A stretch of DNA of 48,551 nt from positions 1 through 48,551 of the forward strand of contig KE560862.1 in assembly GCA_000442015.1 (NCBI GenBank). The letters run 5' to 3'. Shown piece after piece: positions 9,094 through 48,551 of the stretch (position 1 is its first letter; each line of letters starts with the position of its first letter). The notes under the pieces are model-generated. The model made no database searches. It worked only from the letters and a program-made list of their open reading frames with translations, and was not told where the DNA came from. The position numbers and the translations under genes were made by a program. This DNA is from Rozella allomycis CSF55 (taxonomy: Eukaryota).

Positions 9094-9096
9094 GAG

Positions 9097-9177
9097 TGCT
9101 GAGAGTGGGGCTCGAACCCACGCATCTTACGATATGGGATCTTAAGTCGCACGCCTTAACCACTCGGCCATCTCAGC
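9097..9177 (-). tRNA. tRNA-Leu, anticodon TAA, long variable arm, no intron
   Basis: GCTGAGA/TCTCAGC acceptor stem, TGGCCGAGTGG A box, GGTTCGAGCC B box, anticodon loop CTTAAGA. Confidence 0.95.
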
Positions 9178-9303
9178 TTGTGATAGGTCAAGTTTATTGG
9201 ATTTGTTATATTTACCAAATGTATGTTAACCATTCAACATAAAACAAAACCGTCGGCATTACATCAAGTATTAACGAAAATAGTTTATAAAGACAAAAGG
9301 NAT

Positions 9304-34535: not shown

Positions 34536-36403
34536 ATGAAAATTAATACAGCAGAATCTTTTGACACTATAGACTTATCCGAAACAACGTATAAAATATT
34601 CTGCTTGAAATATAGACGAAAGACTTTGAATGCATTAAATTTCACAAGGATGACACCTGTTCAAGCTGTTACACTTCCAAATTTTCTATCAAACAAAGAT
34701 GTAGTAGTGCAATCAAAAACAGGATCTGGAAAAACTTTGAGTTTTGTTATACCAGTTATTGAAATATGTCAAGGATTGAAATCTTTCATGTTGAATGATG
34801 TTTTGGCAGTTATTATAAGCCCTACGAGAGAATTGGCAAAGCAGACATATGATGTAACTGTGAAATTTTCAGAAAATACAAATCTTGTTGTTCAATGCTT
34901 AATAGGTGGCGTGGATATTCAAGCTGATGTAAAGAAAGTCAGAGAATTTGGTGGGAACATTCTGGTCACCACACCAGGCCGTTTATGGGATATAATGGAG
35001 AAATGCAGTGATTTTCTATTATTCAAAAAACTCGAAGTTTTAGTTTTTGATGAAGCCGACAAGTAAAATGCATTACTTTGAGCAATTAGATTAATACAAA
35101 TGGGATTTCAATCAAAAGTGACAGAAATTATAGGGAAATTACCAAAACAAAGGAGGACTGGATTGTTTTCAGCAACTTTGAACGATTCCATTAAAGAGTT
35201 AATTAAAGTTGGCCTTAGAAATCCAGTTAAAATCAACGTAACTGATTCTCACAGTGATGGCCAAACACCTGAAACACTGCAACTGTTTTATTCAGTTGTG
35301 AATCCAAAAGAAAAACTTTTTCAATTGGCTAGCTTCTTGAAAGAAAAGAAGGGATCCAAAATCATGGTGTATTTTGGCACCTGTGCATGCGTTGAGTATT
35401 TTCATCATGTAAAATATTTCTATAAATTTAATTAGCTCTTGTCAGAATGGTCAGAAACCAAAGATTTAAATTTGATTTCATTGCACGGAAAAATGGTCAC
35501 TAAAAAGAGAGATGGTATTATTATAAATGTAACGTTAAAAAGGGTTATATAAAAAATTTGTTAAAGAAAAGGATGCTATTCTTTTGTGCACAGATGTTAC
35601 AGCTAGAGGTATTCACGTTGACGATATCGATTTTGTTATACAGTAAAACATTCTTTATAATTAAATTGATACGATCCACCTCAAGATCCAAGTATGTTTG
35701 TTCATAGAGTAGGCCGATCTGGTCGAATGGGAAATTTGGGAAACGCTTTGGTTTATCTCTACCCCAACGAAGTTCCTTACTTGGGTAATTTTTAACTCCT
35801 TTGTTGATAGATTTTTTGAAACTAAGAAAAATATCAATGGAAGATTTGCCATTGTTCAACCACACACTTTGCTCATCGGGTATTTATGATCTGTTGGCTA
35901 ATCATGACCGTTCATTGTATGAAAAGAGCATGAGAGCGTTTGTCAGTTATGTCAGATTTTATCAAGAGCATCATGCCTCGTTTATTTTCAGATTTAAAGA
36001 TATAGCGATTGGGGATATTGCCGATGGATTTTTTCTACTGAATTTGCCTAGAATGCCTGAATTGGACCAGAAGAATATTGATTGGAAGCCACCGCGTCCA
36101 GAGGTTAATGTAATAATCGCACACATTACTGAGTAATAGGTTCATGAAATCGCGTTTAAAGATCCTCAAAGAGAACAACAACGACTTGTGAGAGTTGAAA
36201 AACAAAAAGAAAAGAAGGCAGAAGAAAAGAAGCAAAGAAAGAAAAGCTTGAAGAATAAGAAGAAATCAGGAATCACGAAAGGACATAGATTTACAGTTAA
36301 CGATTGGGATGAATTGCAATCTGAAGCCAGACTATTAAAGAAATTGAAGAAAGGAAAAATATCAGAAAAAGAAGTCGATGACGCTCTAATGAATTTTGAA
36401 TAA
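34536..36403 (+). CDS. SPB4: DEAD-box helicase Spb4/DDX55; introns 34589-34615, 35063-35089, 35409-35435, 35515-35542, 35643-35668 (GT-TG), 35785-35810, 36110-36139
   Basis: [69 protein letters not shown]. Confidence 0.93.
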
Positions 36404-36427
36404 AGTAAATTTCTTTTACACATTGCT

Positions 36428-38204
36428 TTATTTTTTATGGTGAAAATGGACTTCGTGAAAATTTGGTTCTTCGTATTCGCCATCTCTAAACTTTTTACTT
36501 ATCAAGGATGTCATACTAAACATGAATTGTAAAGCAATTTACTTTTGAAATTCTTGTTGCATTAATTTGTGCNGAATTCTTTGTTGCATTAATTTGTGTT
36601 CTTTATGAATGCCTAATGAATCTAAAACAAATCTTCCTATTTCAGTATTTTCTCTCGAACCACGCAATGCTTCACTATTTCGTCCGTAAGCATACAAGTT
36701 AACATCTACTCCTGTGTGTCCATATGTTGTCCAGCCAATATTCGCTCTTTTTGAAATCTACATGATTTTTGTCGAATAAATGTACTGTTTCGCCAAGAAA
36801 ATATTCAACTTTGGAATAATCATTATTTAAAACATGTTTCTTCAAATAATCCAATTCGACTTTTTCCAACTCGAACGGCAAATAAGCTTTGATAACTATT
36901 TTCAAGTATATTTCAATGCTGTCAGAGTTCATATTGTCAGATATATTCTCCTTTATTTCTTTTGAGATTCTACTAGTGGATTTATTAATATCAAGTAAAA
37001 TTTGTGGATTCCATTTATATTCAGGATATTCCTCTGTGTATTGCGCCCCTACTGTCAATCCCCCGGTTTCATGGTCCGACACTGATATCATTACAGCACC
37101 AGGATTTTTATCGACAAAGTCCTTGACTAACTCTACGGTTTGCTGATACATAAGAATTTCTCTTGCATGGGTTGCAGGGTCGTTGCTGTGAGCCGCCATG
37201 TCTAAATTTTCATTCTTGGTAACTTTGCCTTACCAATTCTCGAGCCTTCAATCATCAAAAAGAATCCTTTGTCAGATGCCTCCATTAAATTCTTTAATGC
37301 AAATGATGCCATTTCCATCAAAGAAGGCTGAGAATTGTCTCTATCAATTTCGTAGTCCATATGATCAAGTGAAAATAGTCCGATAAAAGGATATCCAAAG
37401 TTAACACACTTTTTCAATACTTACTGGTGAATGCTTTCTATAGAGCTCAATTCTGCCCTGCTAAAGGCCAAGGTAGCTGAAGATCTCTTTACTAGTAAAT
37501 TAATGTTATCTCGTCTGCAGGAATCTTTTCCAGATACAAACATGCATCGACCACCACCCATTAATAGATCAACGGTTTGGTTCAATTTAGAAAATCCCAT
37601 TTGGAATAATGCTATTTCACTCTCCATATCTCTATGTTCTACATGTGCACTAAAGGATGCCGGTGTTGCATGAGTCACTCTCGAGGTCGAAACTAGTCCA
37701 GTTGCGTATCCTGCCTTCTTTGCGGCTTCCAAAACCGTTATACAAGGTTTTTTGTTTTGATCCACTGAATGAATACAGTTTTCAAATTCGTACCTCCAAT
37801 GGCTCCATTGTATGTTTTTATCGCACAACTAAAGGCAGTAGCTCCGGCAGCACTATCTGTGATCAATGAGCTTGATGATTTAGTCCTGGAAGATCCAACA
37901 AGCATCGTGTCTAATGGCAATAGTAACTCTGCATCTTTATGTAATGCTTGATTAAATGACCTAGCAAAGGTTTGAGATGCTGGACCATATCCATCTGAAA
38001 TCATTAATATCACATACTTTCTATCTTTTACTATCTTTTCATAGAGTAATTACCTGTTTTTGTCTTGCAATGTATAATTGCGAACAAAAAAGCCATGAGA
38101 AATATGGAACACAAAACTACTCTCCATTTGAAATTATTAGACATTGACAAGGCCTTTTGATTGTGACTTTTACTTATCAGTGGTGTTTTTTCTCTTGTTG
38201 ACAT
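36428..38204 (-). CDS. PHO8: Vacuolar-type alkaline phosphatase (type II membrane); introns 38025-38053, 37765-37793, 37395-37424 (GT-GG), 37202-37233, 36758-36785, 36516-36542; N join at 36573
   Basis: ISDGYGP, TDSAAGAT, THATPASF, FFLMIEGSRIDMAAH, SDHETGG, GHTGVDV. Confidence 0.92.
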
Positions 38205-38277
38205 GAATATTGAAATTTTCGTAAATAGATCATTCATCATTGATAATGATTCAAGTCCAAATGCTAATTAAAACGGT

Positions 38278-39063
38278 TTATTGAATGACAGGTTCAAGTC
38301 TCCGAGAGGTAACGATCCTCATAATAATTATTGAAAACAATATCTGGCAGAAAAATAGAGCGAAATTAACAGCTATGAGGACAATGATGATGTAATTAAG
38401 CTTCATTTTGATAGCATCAAGTAAATTTAAAAGCCCTGCAGATCCGGTACCGGGCAAACCTGTCATGACAAGAATACAGTACAGAATATGAGCGAATTGA
38501 AATACGTAGTACAAAATATAATAGAATGAATTGTCGTCTCTAAGTGATTTTGAGTGATCATGGGTACTTTAAGGCCTTATATAACGAAATGTGCCAAGTT
38601 AGAAAGGAACAAAATGGTCCTAGCAAACAATATGCTATTGACAGTAGGATTGAACTGATTTGGTATTGATTGGCATCAACTGTCATTAATGCAATAACGC
38701 TTGCAAAATTCAGTATGTAGTTACTAACAGCCGCTTTTTAGTAATTTTTAACATGCATACTTAACCATAAAATATAAGACAGTCTAATCTGACCCCTTTT
38801 ACTTTCTTGTATCTCTTTTTTAATATCATGTGTGACGCATGGCCAACACCAAGGCCAATTAGGTGGCACGGCTTGGGTAGAAGGTAATTGAATTTGTGTT
38901 TGACCCAATATATGTAATTAAAATGACAAATTACGGAGTCTACAGGCTTTTCTTTCAATTTGTCTTGACCTTGTTTTAGGTCTTCTTTAATTTCTTTTAG
39001 TTTTGCTGTATTGGTTGGTGAACTAACTGTATTTTCAATTCCTTCATATCGTGAGCCGTTCAT
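38278..39063 (-). CDS. SCAMP-family secretory carrier membrane protein; introns 38906-38934 (GT-TG), 38734-38760, 38540-38567
   Basis: Spliced PPNWPWCWPCVTHDIKKEI, SFLTWHISLYKALKDDNSF (E-peptide-like) and four TM segments. Confidence 0.8.
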
Positions 39064-39101
39064 TAATTAGAAATTTCTATTCTATTTTAGAAATTAAATC
39101 C

Positions 39102-40310
39102 ATGCTAGCTTGTATGCAGTGTGGGCGCGACGCGATCAATGAGCCTCAAAAAGTACACCACCTTCAGCAATTACCAGATGATGTTATTTTTAAAATACTT
39201 GATGAATTGAATTACATGGAGCTCACAATCTTTTCAATGGTAATCTAAAGTATTTCAAGATTAAGTGTTCAAAATGGAGCCAGAAAGTTGGCAATAATCC
39301 GACATTGTACAGGAACTTGAACACTAATATATTCCCACTGAAGACGGTAAAACAAATCAATTCAAAAATCAGCTACAACTTGCAAGTACAATATTTAATT
39401 TTGCGCATAGGAAAGTTAAACTATTCAATATTTATATCGTTTATAAAGAAGGCGGGTGAAAAGGTTATTGACCTTTACTTTGATGCGAATGATTTGGATG
39501 TTAATTCAAAGTTCAGCAATGTAGTATTTGAAAGCATTTCAACTAATGTAAATTGCATTTCTAATCTTGTACTTGAAAATTGTGAAAATATCAGTACTGA
39601 ATGTATTCAAAAATTGTTTCTTGCAAGTAAGCGCCTAAGATATCTACATATTTCTAAATGCTTCTCTCTGGATGATATGTGCCTAAAGAGTGTAGACAGC
39701 ATTTATCTTGAGAAAATATCCTTAATTGATGCGTTTGATATCACGAGTAAAAAAGAAAAGAATTCAGAAATCAGGTGATGGCGTTCAACATTTATTAGAC
39801 AAGTGCAAAAAAGTTAGTCACCTTGCATTAATTAATTGTTCCAAAGTTTTTCCTAATGCTTTTACTGGTATTAAATTCTGATTGTTATTTACAGGTGTGG
39901 ATTTAAATCAATTGGTGGCATTGGATGTAACCAAATGTCGCAACATGAACGATGATTTACTATATATTATATCTAATAAGGCAACAAACTTGAGAATTCT
40001 GAGTTTGAATGGGTGCTGTGATGTTACTGATAAAGGCATAGGCATGTTAAAGATGCTTCCTTTAGAAGATTTGGATTTGACCGAATGTTATTGCATTACT
40101 ACAACAGGCATTAGTGGTCTTTTGATGGAACTGACATCTTTGAAAGTTTTGAACCTTTCATTTTGCATGAAACTCGCCGACGAAATAATACCGTCCATTA
40201 CACGCCTTCGATTGGAAAAATTGATATTAACAAACTGCAGTGGCATTTCTTTTAAAGCTATATCAGATCTAAAACGAATAATGGGAAATTGTGTCGTACA
40301 AACTTGGTGA
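39102..40310 (+). CDS. F-box/LRR (FBXL-type) protein; introns 39240-39265, 39747-39774, 39868-39894, probably also 39347-39372 and 39386-39410
   Basis: F-box LPDDVIFKILDEL...CSKW; Cys-containing LRRs (LxxLxLxxCxxITD type). Confidence 0.85.
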
Positions 40311-40333
40311 ATAAAATGTATAATTCATTAAAT

Positions 40334-42140
40334 TTATTGATAATTTAACAGAAACCGTGTTTCGGAAGGACAACCAATAACTTTGACAATTGAATCCACA
40401 GTTTTTCCATTCTTTATTTCATCCCAAATCATTTTTGGGATTCTCTCAGAAATTCGATGACATCCAAAAACAGAGACTTTGGTTACATTTGAACTTGGAT
40501 TTAAAGTAAAATTTCTTTCAAAGGACAATAATGCATTCATCACATCATCGTCCACGTTGGAACACCAAGACAAATCTATAAGTTCAAGTTTACATACAGA
40601 AGAACAGATGTCCATTAGCATTTCTTTAGAGAGTAATCTCACATAATTTAGATTTAGATTCTCAATCTTTTTGATAAGAGTGGGAACTAATGGCTTCAAT
40701 GCCAGATCAGTCAGTTCAAGATTTCCAGCTAATGAAAGATGAGTCAAGTTTTTGGTCTTTTCAAGCATTTTGTTAACACATTCATCATTTATTTTTGGAA
40801 GGTTGGATAAATCAAGAAACTTTAACCTTTTCACATCAATAAAATCCAAAGAACTACTGGAAATATTAGTGCATTTGTTTAAACTCAGTTCTTCTAGTGA
40901 AATGTTCTCGAATATTGCAAGTAAGCAATCATCTGTGAGAGCAGGGCAATTCTCCAATTTCAAACTTCTTAGTTGNACATTTGTTTAAACTTAGTTCTTC
41001 TAGCGAAATGTTCTCTAATATTGCAAGTAAACAATCATCTGTGAGAGCAGGGCAATTCTCCAATTTCAAACTTCTTAGTTGTCTAAAATGTTTTATATGA
41101 AGAAGTCCATTAACAGTGAACCTATTATTTGAACAAAAGTGTAGCGCTTCTATATTCGGGCAATGCTGAGCCAAATCAGATATACCTTGATCTGTAAATT
41201 TAACCGACTCTACAAACGAAAGCCTCTTCAGTCTGGATCCAATATGATTCCCCAAAGAACACAAAGCACTGTTTGTCAACAAAAAGGCGCCAGTGATTGA
41301 AAGAGATTCAACAAAAGGAATGTTCGATACAAATTTGTCAAATGTTAAATCATCCAATCTACCACACTGCCTAAGATCTAGCGATTTTATAGGAAGACCT
41401 TGAAATTTAGACCATCCTTTTTCTGTAATATCTGTGCAGTCATAAATCGTTATATCAGGCTGGTTATGAATAAACAAGTCAATAAGATCATCATTCATTT
41501 TCCTGTTTCTACACACTAATTGGCACAACGAATCAATTAATGCTGGTTCTATATCGCCAAAGGCTTCAATATCTTCAATTAACGCATATAGTTTTTGTAG
41601 ACAAAGTACTTTTAAAGAAGGAACCTTGTTTAACAGAATATCATCCAGTAGAGAAGTTTCATGAGGTAATTTTTGAAGCTTCTTTGTAGCGCCTTTTCTG
41701 ATTGGTTTTTTATTCTTTGATAGTGCGTTTAAGGCGGATTTTTGGCATGATGCGCACAAAGAAGACCAACATCCAATCGGTAATAAAGTTGAGCAATTAG
41801 AGCAATGTTTTTGTTTCTTGAAATCATAATCCATGTCATCGTCATCATCTTTTTTAGGTTTCTTCTTTTTTGGTCGTTCTGATGCTGTAGCTTCCTGATT
41901 TACTTGTTCTTGAGCAATTTGATTATTGTTAACTATTGTTTCTTGTTCATTTGTCGTTTGTAATTCTTGGGTTGTCGAGGTCTCCGTTTGTAATGACGTC
42001 AAGTTAACGGTAGGCTGGATTTCAACCGTTTCATTTTCATTGGCATTTCTATTTCTCGCCATAGAAAGACGGGAGCTTATTCCTCGCTCTTCTAGAAAAG
42101 AACTAAGAGCGCTTCGTGGGCCTTTAACAGATCTCACCAT
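40334..42140 (-). CDS. RAD7: Rad7-like LRR nucleotide-excision-repair protein, split by an assembly overlap at the N at 40976
   Basis: N-terminal GPRSALSSFL, VPSLKVLC box, LRRs, C-terminal VSVFGC. Confidence 0.75.
40871..41081. repeat. 105-nt duplication across a single N (40871-40975 vs 40977-41081)
   Basis: 5 substitutions, all at third codon positions of the Rad7-like gene. Confidence 0.85.
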
Positions 42141-42246
42141 GCATAAATAAGAAAATTTTCACTAGTACAAGCCAAAAATTTATTAATATATAGTGAAAAA
42201 TTAACTTTTAATAAACACGCTTGAAATATAATACAAATTTAAAGCT

Positions 42247-42652
42247 CTAGTCCACAATCATTTGATGATCATCTTTTTGATTTTCTAGCACAGCTTCTCT
42301 CTTCTCTAAATCTTGCAAAATATCATCAATATCATTTAGAATAATATTTCTTTTTTCTTTTGACGCTTTTATTTGCATATCATAGTCATTTAAAAGAATT
42401 CTTTGTTTTAACATGTTCGAAACATCTAGTAGAGAATTAATAGACCTAATCTAGAATAACATCGTCTTATAAATCTTACGATATTTTCAGTATGGCAAGT
42501 AAGTTGGTATTGCTCCCGTGTAATATGAGTAAGAGATTTGTTTCCAATCTATACAAAAATACATTAACGAATACTGTTGATATTTGTAAAATAGAAGAAA
42601 TATTTTCATAAAGAGAATTAATTTCATCGTCTACCGTAACTCTGAGGTTCAT
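42247..42652 (-). CDS. MED22: Mediator subunit 22 (Srb6)-like; introns 42549-42574, 42451-42479
   Basis: Spliced VDDEINSLYENISSILQ...HTENIIRSINSLLDVSNMLKQRILLND fits the Med22 pattern. Confidence 0.65.
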
Positions 42653-42690
42653 TTTCAGGGAATTCCGTAAAGCCAGGGTCAAGGAAGAAG

Positions 42691-44857
<2,167 letters not shown>

Positions 44858-44894
44858 ATCAATTTCGTATTACATTTTTATTTGTATTTGTTAN

Positions 44895-45349
44895 GTCTCC
44901 ATGCACTCTATCAGCACTCATGGAAAAGACGAAACATCATCACCAACAATACTCCGTAACTACACAACTCCTTCCTCCACAATTACTCAAAGCACCAAAA
45001 CGACGGGACAGANACTTAGATGTGGGTTTTCCCTGATGTATATGTTTGTTCGTGTTGCCGCATCTGGTAGGTATTCTGCGACTTCTGGTTGGCAGTTCTC
45101 CATTTTTATCAGGGCCGGTTTGAGATAGGCCGTTGTCATTCGTCTAAGGTCATTTCTATCTAGATGTGAGCAATCAAAGAGATGATCTTCAGTTTTTATA
45201 TGTAGCTTACAGAGACGGCACATGGTTTCATTTGTGATATGCATTTTCCATCTGGTTGTCCGGCGAAGGACAGGTAGCAGATCCAGCGTCAGTTTGTGCC
45301 GAAAGGCACTTTCGGTTCTTGCCTTTGGTAGTTTGGCTATTGCCACAAC
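44895..45349 (-). mobile_element. 3' fragment of a non-LTR (LINE-like) retrotransposon, zf-RVT-type C-terminal domain
   Basis: FRHKLTLDLLPV...CRLC...TEDHLFDC; fragmented by Ns at 44894 and 45013. Confidence 0.65.
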
Positions 45350-45662
45350 TGAGCCTGGGTCTAAAGTAATTTAAAGAAAACTTAATAAATAAAACTTTTA
45401 GAGCAGTGAAAAACTTTTTTATTTTATTCAAGGGTCGCATTTATACCCCGACCCTGGCTTCTCACTTCTTTTCCGAAATTTCCTTCACACTCTTATTTTT
45501 TAGGCTTTGCGGCTGTGTTATACCCATAACATCGATATTTTTGCTAGATCTCTTGACTACCTCGCTAAATAATAAGCCTGAAGTGAGAGCAGNGTGCCTA
45601 CCTCACTAAATAATAGGCAGGAAGTGAGAGCAACCGGATTGCTAACTCTTCCACTTCCAACA
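45350..45662 (-). repeat. Putative 3' LTR of the copia element (TG...CA), preceded by the polypurine tract at 45663-45672
   Basis: Minus strand GAGAGAGAG then TGTTGG directly after RNase H; contains TATAAAT and AATAAA; CA end at 45350 is inferred; N join at 45593. Confidence 0.55.
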
Positions 45663-45672
45663 CTCTCTCTCA

Positions 45673-48551
45673 AGCTGGCTGGTCTCTTTATGATTCTCAT
45701 TGAAGTTCTATGTCTCTAAAATGCTTCCCTTGGCAATCCGTTCGTTAATGCATCCGCTGTCATATCCTTAGTGCTCAAGTATTCTAAATAAATTCTTCCT
45801 TTTTCTATCTTATCTCTTATGAAATGATATCTATTTTCTATATGTTTAATTTTTTACATTTGATTCGTAAGTGTGAGCTAATCTTATCGCACTCTGGTTA
45901 TCCTCATTAATCCTCACAGCTAGAGGTTTCCATCGTCTTGGTATGTCCAATTCTTTGAGTAGTTTCATCATCCATAATCCTTCTTTGCTTGTATCCGCCA
46001 GTGCCACTTCTGCCGTGCTCAATGCGTTTGTCTTTTGTTTTCGTGTCTTTCAACTCACCAAATTTCCGTCAATAAATATTAAATATCCTGTTGAACTTTT
46101 TCTTGTATCTTTGTCTGTTGCCCAATCAGCATCACTGAACCCTTCCACTTGTATTCTTCCTTTTTTCACACTTGCTGCGCCATCTTCACACTTGTATGTG
46201 AGACAAAAATCCTTAGTTTCCTTTAAATATCTCATAATCCGCTTGACTAATTTCCAATGTTGTTCCCCAGGATTTTCCACGAATCTGCTTGCCATATTCA
46301 CAGCGCGGCTAATGTCCGGTCGTGTCATTGCTTGAATCCATTGAAGGTTCCCTATTGCCTCCCGATATGGTATATGTTTCATTCTTAACTTCTCATCTTC
46401 ACTTTGTGGGCTTTGCGATGTGCTGTAGTCGGCCCCACTTTCCATTGGTGTGGATATTCCTGCGCATTCTTCCATTCCAAATTTCTTCAAGGTATCTTCA
46501 ATAAATGTTTCTTGTGACAGTCTTATCTCTTTCTTTCCTTCATCTTGTTCAATGTTGATTCCTAAGCATCAATTCAATTTATCTTGTATTGAGAATTTAT
46601 GTATGCTTTCGTCTTACTCAGCATTTCTTCGCTGTTTGTTGCTAATATGATATCATCTACGTAAAGTGCCAATATCATCGTCCTATTTTTCTTTTCTTGG
46701 TGTATACGCAGTAGTATCTCTTGAATCCCGCCTTTTTCAAATCCTTGTCAATGCGCATGTTCCATTGTCGTCCGGCTTGTTTCAATCCATATAATGATTT
46801 TCTCAGCTTGCATACTTTCTCCGTATGGAGTATTTATATCCAATTTATAAAATCGTCTCAGATCCCTTTTCAGCGAAGTCTTCTGGTTGTTCCATGTAGA
46901 TCGTCTCACTAATCTTACCGTTGAGATACGCAGTTTCCACGTACAATTGGTGTAATGTATAATGTCTTGATGCTGCCAATGCAATGATCGCATTCACTGA
47001 TGTATGTTTTGCCACTGGTGCATATGTTTCAAAATAATCTCTCCCTTTCACCTGAGTGTGACCACGAAAGACCACACGACTCTTGTATTTCAACAATTTC
47101 CCATTCCCATCAAACTTCGTCACATTTACCCATCTGCATGTGTGCACTTTCTCACCTTCGGGTCTTTCAACTAACTCCCATGTTTCATGATCTTTCAAGG
47201 ACTTAATCTCTTTTTCCATGGCTTCATACCACTCTGCCGAATCATCAGTCAAAATCGCTTCTTTGTATGTGCTTGGATAGTTTTCCAAGGCCATTAATGC
47301 GGCCTCCTTTGGGTTTTCAAAGTAATTCTTTCTCGCGATGTTTCTTAGTCCACCATTCTCATAATTGCGCCAAGTTCCCATAATAACTTGACAATCTTCC
47401 TTACGTATTTCCCTCGCCTTGAATATATCTCTCCCTTTCGGTCTTGGGTTTGTGGCTTGGTGTGATCGCACGTCCTCGATAATCGTATTTTGCACTGGCA
47501 CTTGTCGTTGCACGTCATTTATAACCGTCTTTACGTCCTCTTTATTCAACTTTATTGTTTTCTCGTTTTGCTCGTTGGCCTTTCTCTCCCTTATTTTCGC
47601 TAAAGATTCCTTCAACCTCTCCAACTTCCTACTCGATTCTTCTTCAATTTCTTTTCGCATCATCTCCTTTAGTGTCTGTATCGAGCCTCCTTCTTTTCTT
47701 CCACTCATTCGTTCCACGATTCCATCAATCATTCTTTCGAATTCCACTTCTTCTGTCTCATCCTCATCTTCATCCTCATTCTCATCAATAAACCTAACAT
47801 ATGTTGTTGTTNCCCTCATCTTCATCATCATTCTCATTAATAAATCTAACATGTGTTGTTGTTTTTACTTTATTTGTCTTTCCGGACCATGGCCATAACC
47901 TACTAAGTAGTGTAATGCCGCCTTCCCGTCTAACTTGAATCTCTTGCTCTTGTCAATATGCACATAACAAGCGCTTCCAATCTCTCTCATATGACTCACA
48001 TCCGGTTTTGTACAGCTGTAGATTTCCTCTGGGGTTTTACCGCCCAAAACTTTAGTGGGTGTTCTATTCTGAATGTAACATGCAGTATTCGCCATCTCAC
48101 NCCGATAGTTGTCTGTTGCGCTGGCACTTGTCGTTGCACGTCATTTATAACTGTCTTTACGTCTTCTTTATTCACCTTTATTGTTTCCTCATTCTGCTCG
48201 TTGGCCTTTCTCTCCTCTATTTTTGCTAATGATTCCTTCAATCTTTCCAGCTTCCTACTCGATTCTTCTTCAATTTCTTTTTGCATCATCTCCTCTAGTG
48301 TCTCTATCGACCCTGCTTTCTCTCTTTCGCTCATTCGTTCCACAATTCCATCAATCATCCTTTCGAATTCCACTTCTTCTGCCTCGTCCTCATCTTCATC
48401 CTCAATCTTATCAATAAATCTAACATGTGTTGTTGTGTTCACTTTATGCGTCTTCCCGACGCGTACTCTGAACATTCTGTGGCCATGACCGTATCCTACT
48501 AAGTAATGAATTCTCCGCCTTCCCGTCTAACTTGGATCTCTTGCTCTTGTC
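45673..48551 (-). mobile_element. Degenerate Ty1/copia retrotransposon pol (integrase C-terminus, spacer, RT, RNase H), frameshifted and assembled as a mosaic of at least two copies
   Basis: TACYIQNRTP, KPDVSHMREIGS, YKSRVVFRG, LYGLKQAGRQW, LYVDDIIL, SDADWA, KHIENRYHFIR; related segments near 47480-47810 and 48102-48430. Confidence 0.92.

Follow-up and report, generated by a model that had tools for sequence, protein, structure and literature searches.

A stretch of 48,551 nucleotides (nt) from contig KE560862.1 of Rozella allomycis CSF55 (positions 1 to 48,551, here called the window) carries on its minus strand a four-exon SCAMP gene, of membrane-traffic function, whose first intron appears to end in TG (Table 1). 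The frame opened by the ATG at 39063 is 100 codons long and does not reach the SCAMP motif PPNWP...HDI, and the frame that encodes this motif is closed by a TAA at 38922-38920 and itself lacks an ATG ahead of the motif; a change of frame is therefore needed to make the protein. The original prediction held that a 29-nt segment at 38934-38906 contains no AG and that its removal links the ATG frame to the motif frame, and our analysis bears out both statements. The segment begins with GTAATT and ends with ATTG, the nearest minus-strand AGs lie at 38941-38940 and 38873-38872 with none between them, and splicing gives a protein of 233 residues once the two ordinary introns (27 and 28 nt) are also taken out. 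This product matches SCAMP P0004 with an E value of 2e-27 over 195 aligned residues. PF04144 scores above its cutoff in exons 2 and 4, the NWP motif is present, and four hydrophobic membrane segments can be recognized by eye. Exon 1 alone has no Pfam match; its end is rich in K and E, like the SCAMP coiled coil, and aligns with the coiled-coil end of P0004.

The segment, at 29 nt, is of modal length, and its donor is the commonest one (117 of 992 introns) and of U2 type. Its G+C content is 17%, compared with 35 to 39% in the flanking exons. It departs from U2-type introns at its end, as there is no terminal AG and no AG at all within 45 nt of the donor. Counting from the donor, it has A at +22 and +24 and T at +23, and the first G met from 26 nt onward is that of its TG. 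Judged from the gene models, SCAMP 38934-38906 is very probably a real U2-type GT-TG intron with UG as its sole acceptor, and we file it as a noncanonical variant of the U2-type intron. One RNA run, in which the organism had a share of 0.00, gave short chance matches to window 28600-48500 and nothing on SCAMP, a result that speaks neither for nor against splicing.

Table 1. Coordinates of the SCAMP gene and of further introns with non-AG ends (window positions unless a locus is given)
Feature	Position	Strand	Description
SCAMP exon 1	38935..39063	-	ATG at 39063, 43 codons; coding log-odds +9.9 over background
SCAMP intron 1 (predicted)	38906..38934	-	29 nt, GT...TG, phase 0, donor GTAATT
SCAMP exon 2	38761..38905	-	PPNWP...HDI motif; PF04144 positions 2-35, E 1.4e-8
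SCAMP intron 2	38734..38760	-	27 nt, GT-AG, A at +23
SCAMP exon 3	38568..38733	-	aligns to P0004 and P0005 once spliced
SCAMP intron 3	38540..38567	-	28 nt, GT-AG, A at +23; read from sequence
SCAMP exon 4, to stop codon	38278..38539	-	PF04144 positions 87-166, E 3.2e-14
Spb4 helicase GT-TG intron	35643..35668	+	26 nt, A at +23
Candidate GT-GG intron, alkaline phosphatase gene adjoining SCAMP	37395..37424	-	30 nt, posterior 0.70
GT-GG intron, isocitrate dehydrogenase	L078:7673-7702	-	30 nt, in frame, no stop

The ordinary introns of the genome were surveyed with our own two-strand gene model, which was self-trained on the window together with 80 pieces, each of 10 kb, of two other contigs (in all 848,551 nt including 27,101 N, about 7% of the assembly, G000). 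With acceptors restricted to AG, the model called 992 confident introns, of which 887 were 26 to 29 nt long, only 2 were shorter than 26 nt, and 17 were longer than 36 nt. Among their donors, 955 began with GTA and none with GTC, a count in which rare donors may be undercalled because the model trained itself. The acceptor was the first AG ending at least 26 nt from the donor in 1,241 of 1,254 introns, and an AG ending at 20 to 25 nt was skipped in 252 of the same 1,254. In a set of 1,169 AG introns, 339 ended in AAG and 39 in GAG.

Non-AG acceptors form a genome-wide class. Under a neutral prior that gave 3% to non-AG ends, 11 of the 18 non-AG calls were TG, a dinucleotide with a background share of 5.2%. 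The acceptor prior was also fitted by expectation maximization (EM) from a flat start, with introns longer than 40 nt or with N within 45 nt excluded; the fit returned 1,269.8 AG (96.4%), 34.2 TG (2.6%), 6.0 CG (0.5%), 4.0 GG (0.3%), 1.0 GA, and 0.8 GC, with all others at 0.4 or less. The same fit applied to donors gave 1,310.9 GT, 3.1 GC, 1.7 GG, 1.2 TA, and 1.0 AC. In about 1,315 introns there are thus some 44 departures at the second-last base; the last base departs in about 2, and the donor, GC aside, in about 4. Random error or heterozygosity would not confine variation to the second-last intron base in this way, and the earlier argument that repeated cases lower the odds of a sequencing error now extends well past the two cases on which it was made. 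When the called non-AG ends were reset to AG, TG fell to 0.0. When 60 ends drawn from all 15 non-AG dinucleotides were planted, no bias toward TG appeared (4 planted, 5.2 found) and the exact junction was recovered in 34 of 60; 60 planted AA, AC, or AT ends produced no TG, with 49 of 60 exact. SCAMP intron 1 belongs to this minority class, which is spread over the genome and comprises the roughly 3.4% of introns that end in TG, CG, or GG.

At a posterior of at least 0.5 there were 28 TG calls, 20 of them frame shifting and 8 containing a stop. One Pfam family lies on both sides of the intron in 6 of the 28, and in 4 of these (Spb4, an Atg4-type peptidase, a Sac1 domain, and SNF2) the profile register across the junction is exact, as it is at one Pfam-bridged CG junction. 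A search of solved structures with the exon that follows the Sac1-domain TG intron found nothing.

The clearest companion lies in the same window, in the gene for the Spb4 helicase, to which the original prediction had likened the SCAMP intron; the likeness stands, as the Spb4 intron ends in AATTG. Its removal restores IQYDPPQDP as in the wheat homolog P0002, and in the Helicase_C profile the flanking exons reach positions 88 and 90, a single split codon lying between. The model called this intron even without a TG prior (posterior, 0.90). In these comparisons of predicted proteins the Spb4 TG junction is pinned by homology. A nearby AG in Spb4 and in others yields no intact protein, and TG must therefore be the working acceptor there. 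SCAMP is the weaker case, as its junction is not pinned by homology and it lacks the A at +23 described below. One Spb4 exon in the window shows 100% identity to the public Rozella allomycis protein P0001; that public model (window 35643-35708, plus strand) passes from VIQ to VGRSGR, skipping the TG junction and losing 13 conserved helicase-motif residues. Relatives of Spb4 were sought in metagenomes, where none of 354 pattern matches was confirmed.

Two GT-GG cases were also found. The candidate in the alkaline phosphatase gene contains an in-frame stop, has A at +23, and has no AG within 45 nt, and homology does not pin its junction. The intron in isocitrate dehydrogenase, if read through, would add a 10-residue excess over 46 of 46 solved homologs. 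In the gene for pyruvate dehydrogenase E1 beta (L098:2519-2597, minus strand), one short GT-AG intron does not resolve the stretch from AV to GAAL, which the model can bridge only with a 45-nt intron, an exon of 3 codons, and a GA end.

A second regularity concerns the interior of the introns. An A stands at +23 from the donor in 882 of 1,169 AG introns (75%; 65 to 89% at each length from 26 to 30 nt), against a background of 0.33 within introns and of 0.35 in coding sequence that follows GTA. The bases around this A show hardly any consensus, and a pyrimidine tract is lacking. Introns with another base at +23 have A at +24 in 59% of cases. The +23 A is probably the branch point, set by its distance from the donor. 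The TG introns share it in 23 of 28 cases (P = 1.5e-7) and in 17 of the 19 that are at least 27 nt long. The gene model scores a matrix anchored at the 3' end and does not score an A at +23 from the donor side; because the A in TG introns of 27 nt or more is thus not supplied by the matrix, it gives independent support that these segments are introns. The first G at position 26 or beyond is that of the TG in SCAMP and in each of the 28 TG introns; we put the probability of this by chance at about 1 in 10, so that it is only consistent with the choice of the first G. An AG ending at 26 to 32 nt is present in only 2 of the 28. Where an AG is used, out-of-frame BG dinucleotides (TG, CG, or GG) upstream of it are somewhat rarer than in-frame ones (7 of 145 versus 34 of 306; P = 0.035).

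Several observations weigh against a GT-TG intron in SCAMP or against the scheme into which it fits. The whole-gene model run did not call the SCAMP gene, and SCAMP has T at +23, the pattern with A at +22 and +24 being found in 58 of 1,169 AG introns. Homology leaves the junction unfixed (95.5 bits for the 29-nt GT-TG intron, 92.8 for a 56-nt and 87.0 for a 98-nt GT-AG intron), and the four SCAMP homologs found among cluster representatives are too distant to fix it. Of the six TG junctions with one Pfam family on both sides, one misses the profile register by 1 position and another by 6, and the TG call L071, which sits in an integrase frame, is probably false. U2AF35, the reader of the AG, is present and well conserved. 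The +23 A lies only 3 nt before the end of 26-nt introns, a gap tighter than the commonest spacing for any species cited in the accessible part of PMC2483917. Upstream of AGs that are used, TG shows no depletion (23 of 448 versus 18.4 expected), which rules out a strict rule that the first G wins and makes the first G a fallback.

Among the alternatives, a flaw of the assembly survives best, and we regard it as improbable. The true base at 38907 would be an A, giving a TAG acceptor, or a base would be missing and there would be no intron. The assembly does have local flaws, with 286 isolated Ns in the sequence surveyed and a short inversion in its Prp18 gene relative to P0007 (on a different contig, 11,680 nt). 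Before any error prior is applied, a missing base near 38912 even fits SCAMP slightly better than the intron (log-likelihood of -392.8 versus -395.0); at an error rate of 1e-3 the odds nonetheless favor the intron by 115, and at 1e-4 by 1,150. Errors would be expected alike at the four terminal bases of introns, which is not the distribution reported above. A hairpin inversion could restore an AG in 4 of 29 TG introns with 3-bp arms and in none of 29 with 4-bp arms, and SCAMP is not among the four. The public Spb4 model that avoids the TG is recorded on two contigs, a weak hint that a second assembly also lacks an AG there.

An ordinary, longer GT-AG intron is a slim prospect. There are three in-frame GT-AG options for SCAMP, of 56, 98, and 152 nt, all running to the AG at 38872 and all absent from the original prediction; the 56-nt option (38872..38927, minus strand) and the 98-nt option starting at 38969 have canonical ends and nearly equal alignment scores, they would give a SCAMP shorter by 9 or 23 residues, and introns of more than 36 nt do occur. 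The donors and lengths of all three, however, are scarcely used in this genome. Both the 56-nt and the 98-nt option would use a GTC donor of the kind absent from the self-trained set, and the GTC of the 56-nt option would need to outcompete the commonest donor 7 nt away. A single intron could link the ATG at 39063 with the SCAMP frame in 31 ways, which we compared by model posteriors given that ATG. The 29-nt GT-TG intron was the best of the 31, at 0.86 under a neutral prior that treated all 15 non-AG ends alike and at 0.9996 under the genome-fitted prior, whereas the best GT-AG option, the 56-nt intron, reached 2e-6 or less and was rejected, and the 98-nt intron reached 3e-8. In Spb4, the equivalent escape to an AG is what costs the 13 helicase-motif residues.

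We give equally little credence to a decayed AG with poor or no splicing, which would make SCAMP a hypomorph or a pseudogene or would leave it to a near-cognate start (TTG at 38908) without exon 1. AG still accounts for 96% of ends, which suggests that TG is probably less efficient, and no annotated SCAMP of at least 152 residues with exon 4 was found, in a search that is weak by the tool's own note. On the other side, each of the four exons has an open, SCAMP-like frame, exon 1 has a coding score above background, and TG is the sole acceptor in conserved genes such as those for Spb4 and the SNF2 helicase.

Use of the same donor with another non-AG end, namely a 26-nt GT-TA intron ending at 38909 or a mix of neighboring ends, is more remote still. 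It had a posterior of 0.12 under the neutral prior and would add one Leu that is invisible to homology. TA ends nevertheless have no mass genome-wide, though planted TA ends were recovered, and of 280 introns of 26 nt, only 20 have T at +23 and none has the A22-T23-A24 pattern.

A changed genetic code in which TAA is read as a residue was rejected, as it leaves the frame shift unexplained and the model finds ordinary stops. U12-type introns need a donor of the RTATCC type. The donor of SCAMP intron 1 is GTAATT, and we rejected a U12-type assignment; the survey contained three called introns with GTATCC donors, all ending in AG.

Signs of a minor spliceosome were seen at L136 (G000:C861:364863-364995), L015, and L070 (minus strand) as a U12-like RNA (36 of 53 bits), a second gene related to U2AF35 (by eye resembling ZRSR2), and an intron of 27 nt that begins with GTATCCTT, a length that would be unusual for the U12 type.

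Non-AG acceptors are as a kind already known, from Micromonas and Blepharisma. The nearest natural precedent for a GT-TG intron in SCAMP is the BOC1 region of Micromonas, with 34 introns that have TG or CG acceptors, most of them backed by expressed sequence tags, and that are likewise short, AT rich, and devoid of a visible branch motif (PMC3879977). That region is part of one chromosome in a green alga, whereas the Rozella class extends over ordinary genes on three contigs of a parasite in the fungal line, and the donor-anchored A at +23 is a Rozella feature of which the accessible part of the Micromonas account makes no mention (PMC3879977). Human TG 3' splice sites also combine a GT donor with a TG acceptor on the major spliceosome; they occur only as alternatives to an AG no more than 28 nt away, and in no case does TG serve as the single acceptor (Szafranski et al. 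2007, PMC2374985). SCAMP has no such tandem, as its next AG lies 34 nt on and out of frame with the donor. Yeast without Prp18 or its loop shows the same BG spectrum, with the last G kept, the preceding base free, and a short branch-to-acceptor distance favored; it is, however, a laboratory mutant with low-level BG use beside AG (PMC10711555), whereas BG use in Rozella is apparently normal and the Prp18 loop is diverged, not deleted. The heterotrich ciliates Stentor (PMC9505925) and Blepharisma (bioRxiv 10.1101/2021.12.14.471607) have fixed tiny introns with a GUA donor and a positional branch A without consensus, and an RNA-supported GT-GG intron has been described in Blepharisma (bioRxiv 10.1101/2021.12.14.471607). 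The Stentor A moves with intron length (10th of 15, 11th of 16) and is thus tied to the 3' end (PMC9505925), whereas the Rozella A stays at +23 over 26 to 30 nt and is tied to the 5' end. The constrained branch points of Yarrowia, Trichomonas, and Giardia are tied to the AG (PMC2483917), unlike the +23 A. Tolerance of noncanonical terminal dinucleotides is shared with U12-type introns (bioRxiv 10.1101/2022.09.24.509304). Rozella introns have been described as about 30 nt long and without conserved motifs (PMC6349667). We found no report of non-AG acceptors or of the +23 A in Rozella in the accessible parts of the open-licence literature, including PMC8476143 and PMC13393502, and supplements to the genome paper could mention them.

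The splicing machinery is that of a major spliceosome. The U2, U5, and U6 RNAs score above their Rfam cutoffs and U1 reaches 69 of 69.5 bits, all four with canonical pairing motifs, and genes for U2AF35, SF1, Slu7, and Prp18 were found. Altered pairing motifs in U1, U2, U5, or U6, and loss of any of these four proteins, were accordingly rejected as causes. G at +5 of the intron occurs in only 21% of introns although the U1 and U6 motifs are canonical.

The Prp18 gene (loop at L131:1561-1752, plus strand) is unusual in the loop that follows the conserved GN.AWP.GV, which has one extra residue and has lost the T, G, and H of yeast. The diverged loop is identical in P0007. At L131:1636-1640, G000 reads SF where P0007 has ND; a five-base hairpin-loop inversion explains the difference, which may be an assembly flaw or a variant. 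For comparison with metagenomes, the best 80 of at least 117 matched loci were taken, of which 76 were Prp18-like by their flanking helices and 16 were cut by an intron in the loop. Among the matches listed, 60 uninterrupted loops kept the T in 54, the G in 59, and the H in 58 cases and had no insertion, figures obtained with a pattern that itself selects for a conserved first half of the loop. Yeast without Prp18 opens BG acceptors such as AUG, UUG, ACG, and UGG, deletion of its loop raises splicing at sites with changes at -2 and -1, and a short branch-to-acceptor distance makes Prp18 dispensable (PMC10711555, accessible part). The diverged Prp18 loop, as read from the genome, is a candidate cause of relaxed acceptor checking.

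In spliceosome structures, the last intron G pairs with the first intron G, and the base before it is checked loosely. We propose that the GUA donor, whose signal is visible in the sequence, would be recognized first and that the branch A would then be fixed by its distance from the donor, 23 and sometimes 24 nt, in introns that almost lack both a branch consensus and a pyrimidine tract. The first splicing step would be independent of AG, and the acceptor would be the first AG ending at least 26 nt from the donor, a rule that is statistical. Where an AG is out of reach, the gene models suggest that the first G past 26 nt would be taken, mostly as UG, since the last G must pair with the first intron G and the preceding base is loosely checked. 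The second step would accordingly require the last G and check the base ahead of it only loosely, a pattern consistent with the yeast results (PMC10711555, accessible part). We hypothesize that the loose check may come from the very short branch-to-acceptor gap, from the diverged Prp18 loop, or from both. For SCAMP, this scheme would place the branch at A24 (or A22) and yield the 233-residue, four-exon protein. It is possible, though we hold it only tentatively and think it more doubtful than the intron itself, that Rozella has a natural major spliceosome with a fixed 23-nt donor ruler, an AG-free first step, and ligation at the first G where AG is lacking, in which the diverged Prp18 loop lets some hundreds of genes rely on a sole UG, CG, or GG.

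If BG is the only acceptor in about 3% of introns, roughly 1 in 10 intron-bearing genes would be affected (about 44 in 345 gene models), and AG-only gene models of Rozella, a much-used reference for early fungi and microsporidia, would be wrong at those sites, the public Spb4 model being an instance. Such use would contradict the human rule that TG never works alone, and Rozella would allow direct testing of the way in which the A of AG is checked by the spliceosome. Fungal lariats would have a natural minimum size, set by the donor-anchored A at +23. Were the wider scheme true, Rozella would be a natural equivalent of the yeast prp18 loop mutant, and it would reveal how small a lariat and branch-to-acceptor geometry the fungal spliceosome tolerates.

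Elsewhere in the window, nine single Ns stand at 9301, 29960, 36573, 40976, 44894, 45013, 45593, 47812, and 48101, of which those at 29960 and 40976 coincide with frame breaks and mimic noncanonical introns. Positions 45000-48551 (minus strand) hold broken pieces of a copia-type retroelement with RVT_2 and SH3 domain matches, and ARAGORN calls a tRNA-Leu (TAA) at 9096-9177 (minus strand).
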